A DNA stretch of 64,000 nucleotides from a virus: positions 31,262-95,261 of IMG/VR virus record IMGVR_UViG_3300044620_001904; one strand, written 5' to 3'. The notes below the pieces were generated by a model that was not told the origin of the DNA, ran no database searches, and was given only the letters and a program-made list of their open reading frames with translations. Made by a program: the position numbers and the translations under genes. This document shows positions 6,389 to 46,451 of the stretch, one piece after another (the first letter of the stretch is position 1; each line of letters opens with the position of its first letter).

Positions 6389-8428
6389 ATGAACGAGACA
6401 ATGGATGACGGACCGTCACAAAGAAAAAAATCTGAAAACGATCACGGTACTCCTGTACTAGATAACTTTTCAAAAGATTTAATAAAATACGCAGAAGAAG
6501 GTAAATTAGACCCTGTTATTGGTAGAGATAAAGAAATTTTGAGAATCGCTCAAATTTTATCCCGAAGAAAAAAAAATAACCCCATTATAATTGGTGAGCC
6601 TGGTTGCGGAAAGACCGCAATTGTAGAGGGTTTAGCCATGAAAATTCAACAAGGTGAATGTCCGAGAAATTTATTAGATAAAAGGATTGTTCTTTTGGAC
6701 ATGACATCAATTGTTGCCGGAACAAAATATCGTGGTCAATTTGAAGAAAGGATGAAAGTTATAATCGAAGAACTTCAATCGCATCCAAATATTATTGTTT
6801 TTATTGATGAAATACATACAATAGTCGGCGCGGGTAATTCGTCAGGATCAATGGACGCATCAAACATATTTAAACCGGCATTGGCAAGAGGTGAAATACA
6901 GTGCATAGGTGCTACCACACTAGATGAATATCGCAAAAACTTTGAGAAAGATGGAGCTTTGGAAAGAAGGTTTCAAAAAGTCATAGTAGATCCATCAACA
7001 AAAGAAGAAACATTACAAATTCTACGAAATTCAAAATCAAAATACGAAGAATATCACAAAGTGATTTTTTCTGACGAAGTTTTAACATTATGTGTTGATT
7101 TGGCAGATAGATATATAACTGACAGAGAATTTCCTGACAAAGCGTTTGATATTATTGATGAAGTAGGGGCAAGAAGTCAAGTTGATGTAAAGATGCCAGA
7201 ATCAATAGAAAAGTTAAAACAAGAGGCTGCAGATATCAAACAATTAAAAATAGATGTTGTCAAAAGACAAAATTACGAACAAGCTGCAGAATTGAGAGAT
7301 AAAGAAAAAAAGGTTTTAAATAGACTAACCATTGAGAAACAAAAATTTGAGGAGGAAATGAACATAAATAAAAAAAATGTTCAAATTGAGTTGGTTTATG
7401 AGGTGGTTTCCAATATGACAAAAATTCCTGTTGGAAAATTAAACATTGATGACACCAAATCACTTATTAATTTGGAATCAATGATTGAAAGTAAAGTTAT
7501 TGGTCAAACTGAAGCGGTGAGCAAAATCTCAAAAGCTATTAGAAGAAATAGATTAGGAATTAAAGATCCAAATAGACCAATAGGGTCTTTTATCTTCCTA
7601 GGTAGTACTGGGGTGGGTAAAACACATTTGGCAAAACAATTGGCAAGAGAAATTTTCGGAAGCGAAGATTCATTAATTAGGGTTGATATGTCCGAGTTTC
7701 AGGAAAAACATTCAATATCAAGACTAATAGGGTCACCTCCCGGTTATGTTGGTTATGATGAAGGTGGTCAATTAACAGAACAAGTTAAAAACAAACCATA
7801 TTCTGTTGTTTTATTTGATGAAATTGAGAAGGCAAATAAAGACGTATTCTCAACTTTACTTCAAGTTTTAGACGATGGACATTTGACTGATGGACTCGGT
7901 CGTAAAATCAACTTTAAAAATTGTTTGATAATTATGACATCCAATCTTGGTGTAAAAAAAATACAAGATTTTGGAACAGGTATAGGTTTTCAAAAAAAGG
8001 ATTATATTGTTGAAGAACAAAAAAGGGATACACTAAAAAAAGAATTACAGAAATTTTTTGCACCTGAATTTTTAAACCGTATTGATGACATTATCGTATT
8101 TAACACGTTAAAAGAAGAACACGTTAAAGAAATTGTCAAAATTGAAATAGAAAAATTAAAAAGTAGATTATCCAAGATAAAATACAACCTATCATTTGAT
8201 GATACAATTATTGATATGATATCAAAAGTTGGTTTTGATGAAATGTATGGCGCTCGGCCTCTAAAAAGAGCAATACAAGATAAAATTGAGGATCATATTT
8301 CAGAAGAGGTTTTAAAAGGAAATATTTTAACAGATATCCAATATCTTGTTAAATCTGAAGATGATGAAATAAAAATTATTGAAGAAAAAAAACCAAAAAG
8401 GGGTAAATCAAAAAAGGAGGGTGAATAA
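6389..8428 (+). CDS. clpC: ClpC-like AAA+ Clp protease ATPase subunit lacking the N-terminal Clp-repeat domain
   Basis: two Walker A motifs (GEPGCGKT, GSTGVGKT), UVR-type M domain (QNYEQAAELRD), ClpP-docking IGF loop. Confidence 0.85.
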   Translation: MNETMDDGPSQRKKSENDHGTPVLDNFSKDLIKYAEEGKLDPVIGRDKEILRIAQILSRRKKNNPIIIGEPGCGKTAIVEGLAMKIQQGECPRNLLDKRIVLLDMTSIVAGTKYRGQFEERMKVIIEELQSHPNIIVFIDEIHTIVGAGNSSGSMDASNIFKPALARGEIQCIGATTLDEYRKNFEKDGALERRFQKVIVDPSTKEETLQILRNSKSKYEEYHKVIFSDEVLTLCVDLADRYITDREFPDKAFDIIDEVGARSQVDVKMPESIEKLKQEAADIKQLKIDVVKRQNYEQAAELRDKEKKVLNRLTIEKQKFEEEMNINKKNVQIELVYEVVSNMTKIPVGKLNIDDTKSLINLESMIESKVIGQTEAVSKISKAIRRNRLGIKDPNRPIGSFIFLGSTGVGKTHLAKQLAREIFGSEDSLIRVDMSEFQEKHSISRLIGSPPGYVGYDEGGQLTEQVKNKPYSVVLFDEIEKANKDVFSTLLQVLDDGHLTDGLGRKINFKNCLIIMTSNLGVKKIQDFGTGIGFQKKDYIVEEQKRDTLKKELQKFFAPEFLNRIDDIIVFNTLKEEHVKEIVKIEIEKLKSRLSKIKYNLSFDDTIIDMISKVGFDEMYGARPLKRAIQDKIEDHISEEVLKGNILTDIQYLVKSEDDEIKIIEEKKPKRGKSKKEGE

Positions 8429-42140: not shown

Positions 42141-43181
42141 TTATTTATTAAATCTTTTAAGTGCGTTTTCGGTTATTTTAACGTAGTTTGAATTTTTGAA
42201 GGTTTCTAAGGTAGATGAATTTGTGTATGACATTGCGGATGATAAATAATCGTTAAAATTTGCAACCCACTGTGATACCGTGTATTCAACTTTATTAAAT
42301 TTAACAATTCCTTCTGAGGTTTTCAATACCTGCCGACCCCATTTTTTTTGAACCTGTTTGGTTGACATACCTCTAAATGATTTATAAAGATTTTTTCTCA
42401 AAAATGGAATGTTGTTCCAAATATATTCTGATATATTCTGCGATAACCTAAAAAATTTGAATAGATAATTTTTACCGCACGATTCCAAGGACTTGTTTAA
42501 AATTCCGCCTAACATTACATAATCAGCACCTAATGCCAAGGCTTTAATAATATCATCATAATTTTTGAATCCTCCATCTGCAACTATTTTGGTGGTATAT
42601 CCTTCGTCTTTTTTATGTTGATAACATTCATTAATCAATGACGCCATCGGATAATGAACTCCTGTGTTTGCCGATGTTAAACATCCTGATCCCCCACCAA
42701 TTCCTACTCTAATATAATCAACCCCTAATTTGGCGTAAGCTTTAAATGCTGCCGGGTTTGCAATATTTCCAATCATAATTGTGTGACCTAAATCCTTTCT
42801 TTGAAATGACACAAATCTTTCAACCAAATCATATAATCTTCGCATATGACCGTTCGCGATATCAATTAAGATATTTGGTTGATATTTCGGATAAATTCCA
42901 ATTGAATAATCTTCTAAAAAACTTTCAAACTCATCTAGTGACAATGATGTAAATATTTTTCCTTTTTTTGAATTTACTTTTACACCTCTTGGTAGACAAA
43001 CAATCGTCGCATTGTCTTCAAATATCTTATAATTGTCTTTATCAACTACGGTATCCATTGGTGATACCATAATGGGTAGATAATGTTCCTCGGTAAAAAT
43101 ATCTACTTCTTTTCTTGAGGAAATTTCTGTTAAAGGTTCAGGCACAAGGACTATATCCTTGAAATCAAACTTGTTTGTCAT
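42141..43181 (-). CDS. guaC: GMP reductase / IMPDH-family protein
   Basis: SPMDTV, IDIANGH, VGIGGGSGCLT, ADGG, GADYVMLG, FRGMS, SEG; no CBS domains. Confidence 0.8.
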   Translation of the reverse strand: MTNKFDFKDIVLVPEPLTEISSRKEVDIFTEEHYLPIMVSPMDTVVDKDNYKIFEDNATIVCLPRGVKVNSKKGKIFTSLSLDEFESFLEDYSIGIYPKYQPNILIDIANGHMRRLYDLVERFVSFQRKDLGHTIMIGNIANPAAFKAYAKLGVDYIRVGIGGGSGCLTSANTGVHYPMASLINECYQHKKDEGYTTKIVADGGFKNYDDIIKALALGADYVMLGGILNKSLESCGKNYLFKFFRLSQNISEYIWNNIPFLRKNLYKSFRGMSTKQVQKKWGRQVLKTSEGIVKFNKVEYTVSQWVANFNDYLSSAMSYTNSSTLETFKNSNYVKITENALKRFNK

Positions 43182-43182
43182 T

Positions 43183-43635
43183 TTAAGATTTTTTTGAAAG
43201 GGTTTCTAACTCTTCAAAAGATAATAAACCTCTTCCAAATTGTCCAATTCTTTGACTATATCTTATTTTAACTCTTTCTGAAATTGGTAATGATTGTCCA
43301 TCATCATCAATTCTAACAAATTTTATTTCTGTTTTTGTTACAACTTCCTGTTCTCCTGTATAAACATTATGTTTTCTAACTTCAATATTTAAAGTAACAG
43401 AAGTTCTTCCGAAATCTTTTACTTCTCCATAAATCTTTATAAGATTTCCAACTTTTATTGGTCTTTTGAAAATCAATTCATTGATTTTAACTGTCACCAT
43501 TCTTGGCGTATCGCAAATTTGACAAGCGTAAGCGGCGGCGGCTTCATCTATCCATCCCATCATTTTTCCACCAAATAAATTACCGTGAACTCCAATATCA
43601 GGTGACATACATATTTTTGTTGTAATCAATTCCAT
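43183..43635 (-). CDS. acyl-CoA thioesterase (hotdog fold)
   Basis: HGNLFGGKMMGWIDEAAA..MVT..F..PI..G..GRTS. Confidence 0.9.
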   Translation of the reverse strand: MELITTKICMSPDIGVHGNLFGGKMMGWIDEAAAAYACQICDTPRMVTVKINELIFKRPIKVGNLIKIYGEVKDFGRTSVTLNIEVRKHNVYTGEQEVVTKTEIKFVRIDDDGQSLPISERVKIRYSQRIGQFGRGLLSFEELETLSKKS

Positions 43636-43724
43636 AATTATTAATTAATACGAACCACTTATATTTGTTTAATTTTTTCTGTGGTATTGTGGTAAATATA
43701 TGTAGTTTTTTTGATTTATTCAAT

Positions 43725-43957
43725 CACTAATAATTACTAAATTTGTAAGCGTCTTCCAACTGTAGCAGGTAATCCTTGTGCACCGGTAAGGTGTAACACC
43801 CTTCAATTTGTAAGCTTCTTCCAACAAAATATGTGATGTATCCGACGAATCCTATGGTGTAACACCCTTCAATTTGTAAGCTTCTTCCAACCATTTGGTC
43901 AACCATATCCCGAAGCTTGTTGGTGTAACACCCTTCAATTTGTAAGCTTCTTCCAAC
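43725..43957. CRISPR. mini CRISPR array with type VI-B-like 36-nt repeats; no cas gene recognised in the window
   Basis: GGTGTAACACCCTTCAATTTGTAAGCTTCTTCCAAC at 43790, 43856 and 43922, a partial copy ending at 43760, and unique spacers of 29/30/30 nt. Confidence 0.8.
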
Positions 43958-44214
43958 CAATCCTTTATAATTAACTGAATATCATCATAATTAAGGTAAA
44001 AATACCGTTCCAATTTTGACCAAATATCTTTATGACTTACCCGAACCCTCTCATTTTTCTTATCGTATTCCATAAATATATGATTTTCGGAATCAGCATA
44101 AAATAATGAATTTGGATATTCTGAACTAATTTTTGGTGTTAAATTTCCAAATGATTTTGTTAAATATAATTTAACGACTCTAACTAATTTTGGTCTATCG
44201 ATTATTATGTTCAT
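43852..44214 (-). CDS. hypothetical protein whose C-terminus (WLEEAYKLKGVTP twice) is encoded by the array repeats
   Basis: 120-aa ORF reading through repeat-spacer-repeat in frame. Confidence 0.65.
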   Translation of the reverse strand: MNIIIDRPKLVRVVKLYLTKSFGNLTPKISSEYPNSLFYADSENHIFMEYDKKNERVRVSHKDIWSKLERYFYLNYDDIQLIIKDWLEEAYKLKGVTPTSFGIWLTKWLEEAYKLKGVTP

Positions 44215-45059: not shown

Positions 45060-46451
45060 ATGTCAAATATTTCGGGACAATTAATAAAAGATTCATTTAA
45101 CTATGTCCTACAATCTGATTTAGTATCAGGTGTGGTATTTAGAATCGGGGGATCTGTTCCTGTAAATCCAAAATTCACATCAGGTCTAACAGTAAATGCA
45201 AATTTTACATATTCTGATGGTTCTGAATTTCCTGGATATGTTTTGACATGCGATGCTTTGGGAAATGCTGTTTGGGCTCCTGTTTCGGGAGCAACATCAG
45301 GTGTTGTGATCACAGGTGGAACTTTCGATTATTCGGTTGGAACCTTACAATTAAGAAATTCTAATGGAACAAGTGTAACAATAACAGGTTTAACTGACAC
45401 TTATGTTACAGGTGGCACAGTTTCAGGAACATCTATTATTTTTAGTTATAACGATACAAATACTTTTCAGGTTACGGGTATTACTCCTTATAATTTATTT
45501 TCATCTTATACCGCATCTACTCAAGTTACAATTAATAATAAATTAGATGTAAGCGGATTTACCGCATATACAGCTACCACGCAACCATTAATATTAAATT
45601 CTGTAACGGGCGGAACTTATTCAGGTGGAACACTTTTATTAATCAATAACTCAGGTACAACGATACCGATTACAGGTTTCACAACAGGAGGAACATCAAC
45701 AACAGACACATTTGTGACGGGGTTTAGTTATAATAACAATCAAATTATACTAAGTCAAAATAGGACTGATACTTTTTCATCATTCACAGTCACACTTTCA
45801 GGTCTAGTACAGAATGATGTATTCTCATCTTATACCGCATCCACTCAAGTTACAATTAATAATAAATTAGATGTAAGCGGATTTACCGCATATACAGCTA
45901 CCACGCAACCATTAATATTAAATGCAGTTACAGGTGGAACATATTCGGGTGGAACACTTTATCTAATTAACAATTCTGGAATAACAATCTCCATCACAGG
46001 ATTTTCAAATTTGCAATATTTTATTTCAGCAACAACACCAACACAAATTGTAAATTCGGGGGATAGATGGTTTAACACAACAACAGGTATTGAATTAGTT
46101 TATATTGATGATGGTGATTCAAAACAGTGGATACAACCATTTTCTGTACCAGGACCCGAAGGGCAAAACATTCACTCAACAACAGGGATCACGTCATCAC
46201 AAACAATAACTTGGGACAAAACATATTGGGGAATAAGTGCAAATACTCAAGTCAATTTAACATTACCTACAACTTCATCAAAGGATGGTTATTATTTAAT
46301 TATCAAAGACGAATCCGGTTTTTGCGGTAATTATAGAATAAGATTGACACCTTCAGTGGGATTAATAGATGGTAATAATTACGTTGATATGAACATAAAC
46401 TATATGTCTCTGACTTGTATGGTTAGAAACGGAAATTGGTATTTAATATGA
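45060..46451 (+). CDS. Thr/Gly-rich fibre-like virion protein
   Basis: VTGGTYSGGTL repeats; internal duplication. Confidence 0.6.
   Translation: MSNISGQLIKDSFNYVLQSDLVSGVVFRIGGSVPVNPKFTSGLTVNANFTYSDGSEFPGYVLTCDALGNAVWAPVSGATSGVVITGGTFDYSVGTLQLRNSNGTSVTITGLTDTYVTGGTVSGTSIIFSYNDTNTFQVTGITPYNLFSSYTASTQVTINNKLDVSGFTAYTATTQPLILNSVTGGTYSGGTLLLINNSGTTIPITGFTTGGTSTTDTFVTGFSYNNNQIILSQNRTDTFSSFTVTLSGLVQNDVFSSYTASTQVTINNKLDVSGFTAYTATTQPLILNAVTGGTYSGGTLYLINNSGITISITGFSNLQYFISATTPTQIVNSGDRWFNTTTGIELVYIDDGDSKQWIQPFSVPGPEGQNIHSTTGITSSQTITWDKTYWGISANTQVNLTLPTTSSKDGYYLIIKDESGFCGNYRIRLTPSVGLIDGNNYVDMNINYMSLTCMVRNGNWYLI
45501..45975 (+). repeat. intragenic direct repeat (~100 bp near-identical, extending to ~150 bp) at 45501 and 45825
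   Basis: TCATCTTATACCGCATC..CAACCATTAATATTAAAT occurs twice; related copy near 47820-47900. Confidence 0.85.

Follow-up and report, generated by a model that had tools for sequence, protein, structure and literature searches.

Viruses reportedly carry small CRISPR arrays of their own. Medvedeva et al. 2019 are said to have described cas-less mini-CRISPR arrays borne by the Sulfolobales viruses SPV1 and SPV2, and Al-Shayeb et al. 2020 reportedly found compact arrays in huge phages. The arrays analyzed here resemble such virus-borne mini-arrays in that they hold 1–6 spacers, lie in a viral genome without cas genes, and presumably depend on the CRISPR machinery of the host. The known virus-borne mini-arrays are, however, said to be intergenic, to use the host's own repeat, and to carry spacers matching related viruses, whereas in our case a protein family's conserved coding end serves as the first repeat, the repeats follow their own gene, many copies occur per genome, and neither a host repeat nor a spacer target was found. 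A second point of comparison is ectopic ("neo-CRISPR") spacer integration at repeat-like sites, as reportedly observed by Nivala et al. 2018 and by McGinn and Marraffini 2016. In these events, Cas1-Cas2 is said to start an array at a pseudo-repeat by duplicating the sequence between its two cut sites, and the duplication of whatever lies between those sites would explain the locus-specific repeats seen here. The reported neo-CRISPR events are laboratory events in bacterial chromosomes or plasmids, whereas integration in the present case would be natural, recurrent, and family-wide, would take place in phage genes, and would show signs of selection.

In Flavobacterium columnare, the repeats of the II-C and VI-B loci are both 36 bp long, new spacers measure 28–32 bp and mostly 30 bp, and an array lacking cas1 is supplied in trans by the II-C Cas1 (Hoikkala et al. 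2021, PMC8092290). The VI-B array filled in this way is similar to ours in repeat length, spacer length, and polarized addition, and likewise has no cas1 or cas2 of its own, the integrase being encoded elsewhere, as we infer for the phages. It is chromosomal, lies beside cas13b, and has a non-coding leader and full terminal repeats; here, in contrast, a phage gene takes the place of the "leader," ~21 nt of the terminal repeat remain, and the resemblance to a real 36-nt repeat is weak. RNA anti-CRISPRs (Racr, solitary repeat units; Camara-Wilpert et al. 2023, PMC10651486) are phage-borne repeat mimics that occur alone or in mini-arrays and, like the viral crRNA-like regulators (bioRxiv 10.1101/2024.10.29.618823), engage host Cas proteins. 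Our repeat also stands alone at 43 of 124 gene ends, as solitary repeat units do. Both kinds of element are non-coding RNAs that match a known host repeat, whereas the mimic described here is overprinted on coding sequence, usually comes with full-length spacers, and has no known matching host system.

Phage-borne mini-arrays and repeat mimics are already known; what appears to be new is a repeat that is the conserved coding end of a protein, over many paralogues and two deeply diverged subfamilies. No description of such a gene-end array was found in the literature searched. The feature is real, reproducible, and unusual, and it is best filed among the virus-borne mini-CRISPR arrays.

The array, its gene, and their surroundings

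The window, that is, the whole stretch of 64,000 nucleotides analyzed, belongs to an IMG/VR virus contig of 95 kb (estimated 32% complete, 31% G+C) from an uncultured lake phage. Its array spans positions 43740–43957 and consists, read on the minus strand, of three full repeats, a truncated fourth, and spacers of 30, 30, and 29 nt. The first-pass annotation had described three identical 36-nt repeats and a partial copy with unique spacers of 29–30 nt, and both the coordinates and the sequences were confirmed. Each 36-nt repeat has the 5′ start GTTGGAAGAAGC and the 3′ finish GTTACACC, and the start-to-start distances are 66, 66, and 65 nt. Repeat 1 (43922–43957) forms the gene end and is the gene-proximal, "leader-side" copy, with G or C held at the wobble positions. 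It is followed by spacer 1 (43892–43921, 30 nt), the newest by position, whose in-frame translation is TSFGIWLTK and which has no match elsewhere. Repeat 2 (43856–43891) is identical to repeat 1. Spacer 2 (43826–43855, 30 nt) gives the final base of a Pro codon (CCA) begun in repeat 2, and the TAG stop of the ORF comes next. Repeat 3 (43790–43825) is identical to the other two and lies downstream of this stop codon; therefore, its identity cannot come from protein selection. Spacer 3 (43761–43789, 29 nt) is the oldest by position and has no match elsewhere, and the truncated terminal repeat (43740–43760) retains the first 21 nt with one mismatch, the other 15 nt being unrelated. The three spacers share no similarity among themselves or with the rest of the 95-kb record. 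A control pattern, in which the repeat was reversed, gave 0 matches, and three exact 36-mers at a constant period are far beyond chance.

The array is fused to a 120-aa ORF (43852–44214, minus strand), the last of three consecutive ORFs on that strand whose ends overlap or abut. Translation bore out the earlier reading that the minus-strand repeat encodes the C terminus of this ORF, which continues in frame through a 66-nt unit. Residues 86–98, encoded by repeat 1, are WLEEAYKLKGVTP; ten residues encoded by spacer 1 follow, the motif then recurs from repeat 2, and the frame stops at the first codon of spacer 2. The protein belongs to a virus-only, multicopy family of ~100-aa proteins with no function assigned. 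We found 51 close homologues and 1291 representative clusters at E ≤ 1e-3; all named family neighbors are viral, and the Atlas returned viral hypothetical clusters only. No Pfam or PHROG family was found for the protein. Its AF2 model has a pLDDT of 88.5, with residues 1–100 mostly above 90, and searches with this model gave no usable fold match (Foldseek on PDB, E ≥ 0.07; VIA wide, Z ≤ 4.4).

Homologues share the C-terminal motif, and their tails often hold the motif again or the repeat in another frame. Family members are often arranged in tandem, and one 261-kb phage has as many as five of them. Where copies are in tandem, the frame often closes at an ATGA overlap with the next paralogue. 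Three single ORFs, P0052 (760 aa), P0058 (346 aa), and P0169 (588 aa), contain 4–5 consecutive copies of the family domain, indicating that tandem paralogues read through their arrays as a single frame.

Lake metagenomes dating from 2016 to 2024 contain this array (spacers 3 and 2); among sequencing runs, none from RNA contained the stretch. In one metagenome run from a lake, position 43637 is joined directly to 44213 on a contig, so a close strain lacks or has replaced exactly the 120-aa gene and the array, from the thioesterase start to the end of the upstream gene. In this one strain, the gene-plus-array unit behaves as a dispensable cassette.

The thioesterase gene is of the 4HBT type (43183–43635, minus strand) and lies directly downstream of the array on the same strand; an IMPDH/GMP-reductase-like gene (42141–43181, minus strand) lies past it, also on the same strand. 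Both count as auxiliary metabolic genes, and nucleotide likeness to a cultured phage was confined to the thioesterase (68%, Flavobacterium phage vB_FspM_immuto). A 463-aa ORF (45060–46451, plus strand), on the strand opposite to the array gene, has a long internal duplication in which VFSSYTASTQVTINNKLDVSGFTAYTATTQPLILN occurs twice and probably encodes a tail-fiber-like protein. At a distance (6389–8428, plus strand), the window also encodes a 679-aa ClpB/ClpA-like double AAA+ ATPase (AAA_2, AAA_lid_9, ClpB_D2-small).

Repeats and spacers across the gene family

Loci were gathered from viral records (37), from metagenomes (52), and from a distant subfamily (29), and counts were taken over the 124 distinct gene ends with enough downstream sequence. 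An array is present at 81 of the 124, carrying 1–6 spacers each: 57 gene ends have one spacer and 24 have two to six, and the remaining 43 have none. Homologues had been proposed as the place to look for arrays with different spacers, and this is what they show, as spacers are not conserved from one gene end to another. There are 117 unique spacers, 91 in the first set and a further 26. Those of the first set are 29 nt (n = 52) or 30 nt (n = 30) long in 82 of 91 cases (other lengths, n = 9), and the second subfamily gives the same pattern. The first-pass annotation had noted that spacers homologous to each other, or conserved as protein across homologues, would indicate a plain coding repeat; instead, the 91 spacers fall into 87 sequence clusters, and no such conservation was found.

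The repeats follow the gene on which they sit. Of 42 internal repeats, 30 reproduce their own gene end without a change in the 36 nt, and the mean is 0.7 mismatch; between the 85 distinct gene-end repeats, in contrast, the average difference is 11.7 of 36 positions. This copying of the locus's own gene end persists where the 3′ third of the repeat is of another type. It also persists in the second, distant subfamily, which has the same architecture with a different repeat (repeat start GGTGGAGGAAC; encoded motif W-VEEHYKLxVTTT) and up to 5 spacers. Since internal repeats match their own gene and differ between loci, they were duplicated in place rather than imported. Fixed-length local duplication is the behavior of a CRISPR integrase, which argues for CRISPR-type insertion and not for a coding repeat.

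The arrays are also polarized. Over the family, mismatches in the terminal repeat number 1.5 over the first 21 nt and 8.9 over the last 15 nt, and the same truncation is seen in 73 of 81 arrays. In all three informative comparisons (3/3), which are independent of each other, the difference lies on the gene side. The pairs L046/L072 and L053/L076 have a common distal spacer and different proximal spacers; L014 has one extra proximal unit relative to L015/L016, with a 97% identical gene; and L134 and L139, whose genes are identical, have two distal spacers in common and differ in their proximal spacers, one in L134 and three in L139. In pairs sharing a distal spacer, that spacer and the repeats are 100% identical and the flanks 85% identical. 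Identical repeats of the 23–50-nt class, unique spacers of near-constant length, polarized turnover, and a degenerate terminal repeat are among the features by which CRISPR arrays are generally recognized, and these arrays show all four. Further such features are cas genes in the genome or a matching host array with cas genes, and spacers that match foreign DNA; the searches described below found none of these.

We compared codon usage in the repeat with that of the gene body in 64 genes of <90% identity. The gene body has A or T at nearly every third codon position, whereas the repeat holds these positions at G or C. The two Leu codons of the repeat are TTG in 58 of 61 and 54 of 63 genes (gene body, 11%), the Tyr codon is TAC in 57 of 64 (gene body, 32%), and the Thr codon is ACA in 43 of 44 (gene body, 44%). 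The one codon of the repeat that varies in amino acid is nevertheless NNT in 61–62 of the 64. G/C wobble bases within an AT-rich gene indicate a constraint on the repeat at the nucleic-acid level in addition to that on the protein. After the final CC of the repeat, the next base varies freely and thus marks the start of the spacer. Furthermore, the 21-nt core of the terminal copy is kept although this copy is either not translated or read now in one frame and now in another, while its other 15 nt have decayed; the core therefore matters as nucleic acid.

The inserts are under a constraint of another kind. Gene-proximal spacers are stop-free in the frame of the gene in 51 of 61 cases, compared with 33–38 of 61 in the other five frames, indicating that translation-level selection acts on the inserts too. 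Inserts are thus filtered for continued translation, perhaps for coupling or against polarity. Because 29-nt inserts shift the frame of the next repeat, stop avoidance does not rescue a purely protein-level explanation.

Searches for cas genes, a host, and spacer sources

Family searches revealed no Cas1 in five phage records, one of them 89% complete, and scans of the large ORFs of this 89%-complete relative with PADLOC, Pfam, and PHROGs revealed no Cas effector, cas13b included. The data support the earlier description of the locus as a mini-array of CRISPR type, lacking cas genes and joined to the 3′ end of a real protein gene: repeats and spacers were confirmed, and the searches of the phages gave no cas gene. 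On the opposite strand, nothing resembling the anti-repeat of a type II tracrRNA rose above the control in the phage records checked. A double-repeat pattern gave 0 matches in ~185,000 bacterial species genomes, revealing no host-type array with this repeat. The single-repeat pattern gave 6 matches in bacterial genomes, all in unrelated proteins containing LEExYKL, which we discarded. Among the 241 million records of a metagenome collection there was again no host-type array, all 52 matches being small arrays of the phage type. Since neither an array nor a gene with this repeat came to light in bacteria, the presumed host system is as yet unseen.

No source or target of the spacers was found in the phage's own genome, in the whole related 261-kb phage, or in all the loci. 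The spacers have no match in INPHARED, and five spacer cores matched only themselves in IMG/VR; the collection scans, including that of IMG/VR, report exact matches only. When the array of the window was compared with 251 Flavobacteriales genomes, the best per-genome E value was 3.8e-4, for a match lying across a spacer-repeat junction, and the matches of spacer 3 in these genomes fell within unrelated genes; both were treated as chance. The G+C content of the spacers is 0.39, compared with 0.32 for the phages (p = 9e-14), and spacers richer in G+C than the phages that carry them are likely of foreign origin.

A host among the Bacteroidota is likely, as two findings suggest. The first is an 858-aa protein (L099:8742–11318) of the 261-kb relative (IMGVR_UViG_3300042541_001760), a host-like surface protein that combines SprB repeats and PKD domains with a CHU_C domain for type IX secretion sorting. 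The second is that, among cultured phages, the nearest relative is a phage of Flavobacterium.

One Flavobacteriales genome (G084) carries an orphan array (L162:220–651), whose repeats measure 36 nt and whose spacers measure 30 nt; its 219-nt leader lies at a contig end. Another contig of the same genome (L163) holds a cas9-like ORF together with cas1 and cas2, and after these comes an array of 76-nt period. G084 thus has a second array, without cas1 and cas2, beside a II-C-like locus, as in F. columnare.

Origin of the units and competing readings

We consider it moderately probable that the units arise by in situ insertion of spacers at a dual-coded gene end by a CRISPR integrase, taken to be that of the host, and that the repeat is kept as nucleic acid. 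The first-pass annotation had offered three ideas, namely borrowing of host Cas13b against competitors, decoy RNAs acting as anti-CRISPRs, and spacer integration into a gene end that mimics a repeat. Of these, the data favor spacer integration, through the duplication of each locus's own repeat and the polarity of the arrays. The last 12 codons of the family (…W|LEExYKLxGVTP) would double as a 36-nt CRISPR-type repeat, and an integrase would repeatedly open the junction between gene body and repeat, each opening admitting a foreign piece of 29–30 nt and duplicating the 36 nt of the locus itself. The integrase is assigned to the host because the phages searched encode none; it may be a host Cas1-Cas2 of the class with 36-nt repeats and 30-nt spacers known from Flavobacteriales II-C/VI-B loci, and the in-trans adaptation of F. 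columnare II-C/VI-B is the closest known machinery. New units enter on the gene side, and the oldest repeat survives as its first ~21 nt; units may be lost through recombination between repeats. The array would be co-transcribed with the gene as the 3′ tail of its mRNA. Its repeat core (about GTTGGARGARNNTTACAAATT) would be kept because the integrase, and probably a host Cas effector as well, recognizes it as nucleic acid; the array RNAs would either guide this effector or occupy it. Selection would then purge inserts that stop translation just past the gene end.

Several observations stand against in situ insertion by a host integrase. The wide differences in repeat sequence between loci and subfamilies are awkward for a sequence-specific integrase or effector. 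No cas1, effector, anti-repeat, host array, or spacer source was found, and the repeat has no stable fold and no Rfam match. In addition, proximal spacers show translation-level selection, and the cassette is absent or replaced in a close strain.

If insertion by a CRISPR integrase is true, CRISPR adaptation machinery writes into phage genomes in nature and on a large scale, the overprinting of a repeat on a protein is under selection, and the arrays are a natural record of DNA met by a phage lineage. The 85 natural repeat variants would then offer a tractable way to study the leader and repeat needs of an integrase, and the host assignment of metagenomic CRISPR arrays would be affected.

The same insertion chemistry could leave nothing but neutral scars: a gene end that happens to resemble the leader-repeat junction of a host would suffer occasional off-target Cas1-Cas2 integration, and the functionless units would be tolerated. 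That no spacer target was found, that arrays are tiny (one spacer in 57 of 81), that 43 of 124 gene ends have no unit, and that a close strain dispenses with the cassette are all as this reading would have it. We nevertheless regard it as unlikely, since codons ending in G or C are kept in the repeat of an AT-rich gene, and a terminal copy that is untranslated or frame-shifted keeps its first 21 nt while the rest decays, which points to selection on a nucleic-acid element. The persistence of the architecture over two deeply diverged subfamilies is likewise poorly accommodated by neutrality.

At the other extreme, the phages could keep a gene-embedded CRISPR memory of their own, in which the dual-coded repeat recruits a spacer-insertion enzyme and the array RNAs reprogram or jam a host Cas effector; we hold this, too, to be improbable. 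In a bolder variant, insertion is carried out without canonical Cas1-Cas2 by an unrecognized phage factor, possibly the ~100-aa protein itself, which would account for arrays being found always on this family and for repeats that follow the gene they are attached to.

A reading that dispenses with CRISPR altogether takes the array as a hypervariable C-terminal tail, selected at the protein level, with homologous recombination at the two conserved 21-nt cores swapping it among paralogues or alleles. The avoidance of in-frame stops by gene-proximal inserts agrees with it, as does the AF2 model, in which the repeat-encoded residues sit inside the predicted fold. The multicopy, tandem nature of the family also agrees with it, and the shared distal spacers and repeats, which are fully identical between flanks that are not, show recombination. 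Insert lengths of 29 nt (52) and 30 nt (30), however, mostly shift the frame, so that the downstream repeat is read in different frames; lengths that are not multiples of three are a poor fit to a coding cassette. Repeats past a stop codon stay identical, as repeat 3 of the window does, and recombination can shuffle but cannot create 117 unrelated inserts of fixed length with exact 36-nt duplications. We therefore judge a hypervariable tail to be quite unlikely.

The first-pass annotation had assigned the array to type VI-B and placed its promoter in the partial repeat, with transcription running rightward on the plus strand from a Bacteroidota −7 box to give spacer-then-repeat crRNAs, antisense to mRNAs, for Cas13b. 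The element TAAATTTG is indeed present at 43738–43745, a Bacteroidota host is plausible given the SprB/CHU_C protein of the related phage, and a full repeat follows every spacer only when the plus strand is read. On the gene strand, 57 of 81 arrays read repeat-spacer-half repeat, and the spacer would lack the full 3′ repeat of a Cas13b crRNA. The geometry of 36-nt repeats and ~30-nt spacers fits VI-B, but it is also that of II-C in Flavobacterium (PMC8092290).

In sequence, the repeat bears some likeness, though a weak one, to a real Flavobacteriales repeat. The single Flavobacteriales 36-nt repeat fetched, whose own type is unproven, agrees with ours at 19 of 36 positions, and the likeness is not strand-specific (21 of 36 for the reverse complement); over the inner 28 nt there are 12 matches, a number reached by 6% of shuffles. 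The repeat of the second subfamily agrees with the same repeat of unproven type at 22 of 36 positions, and its inner 28 nt are equaled by 70 of 20,000 shuffles. An Rfam scan of the region gave noise only and no CRISPR-DR match. Our repeat forms no stable hairpin on either strand, with a minimum free energy of −1.1 kcal/mol that 198 of 200 shuffles equal or better. No cas gene, cas13b included, was found in the phages searched, and the type VI-B assignment could not be upheld.

Nor did the plus-strand promoter fare better. TAnnTTTG occurs in the partial repeat of some loci only and is absent from it in many, and terminators on the gene strand follow several arrays; in loci of the L025 type, a strong terminator with a 12-bp stem lies on the gene strand 28 nt past the array. 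In VI-B arrays, transcription starts at the variable end (PMC8092290), and as the variable end here is the gene side, this points to the minus strand. Taken together, these data make a plus-strand Cas13b array very improbable. The terminal repeat keeps the ~21-nt 5′ part, which is compatible with the type II crRNA layout of a spacer plus the 5′ part of the next repeat. This truncation appears to fit type II better than VI-B, and is only a lead.

Other sources of repeated or variable DNA were ruled out on simple grounds: a diversity-generating retroelement (DGR) because variation is confined to the stretches between identical repeats, integron attC sites because there are no inverted repeats, a shufflon because there are direct repeats only, a RiPP precursor because frames are not kept and stops lie inside the array, and tandem duplication with divergence because the spacers have no mutual similarity.

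At L025:563–627, the terminator is followed by a perfect TTGACA-16-TATAAT promoter before the next gene, an arrangement conserved in several loci. A consensus promoter of the sigma-70 type is unexpected in a phage thought to infect Bacteroidota.
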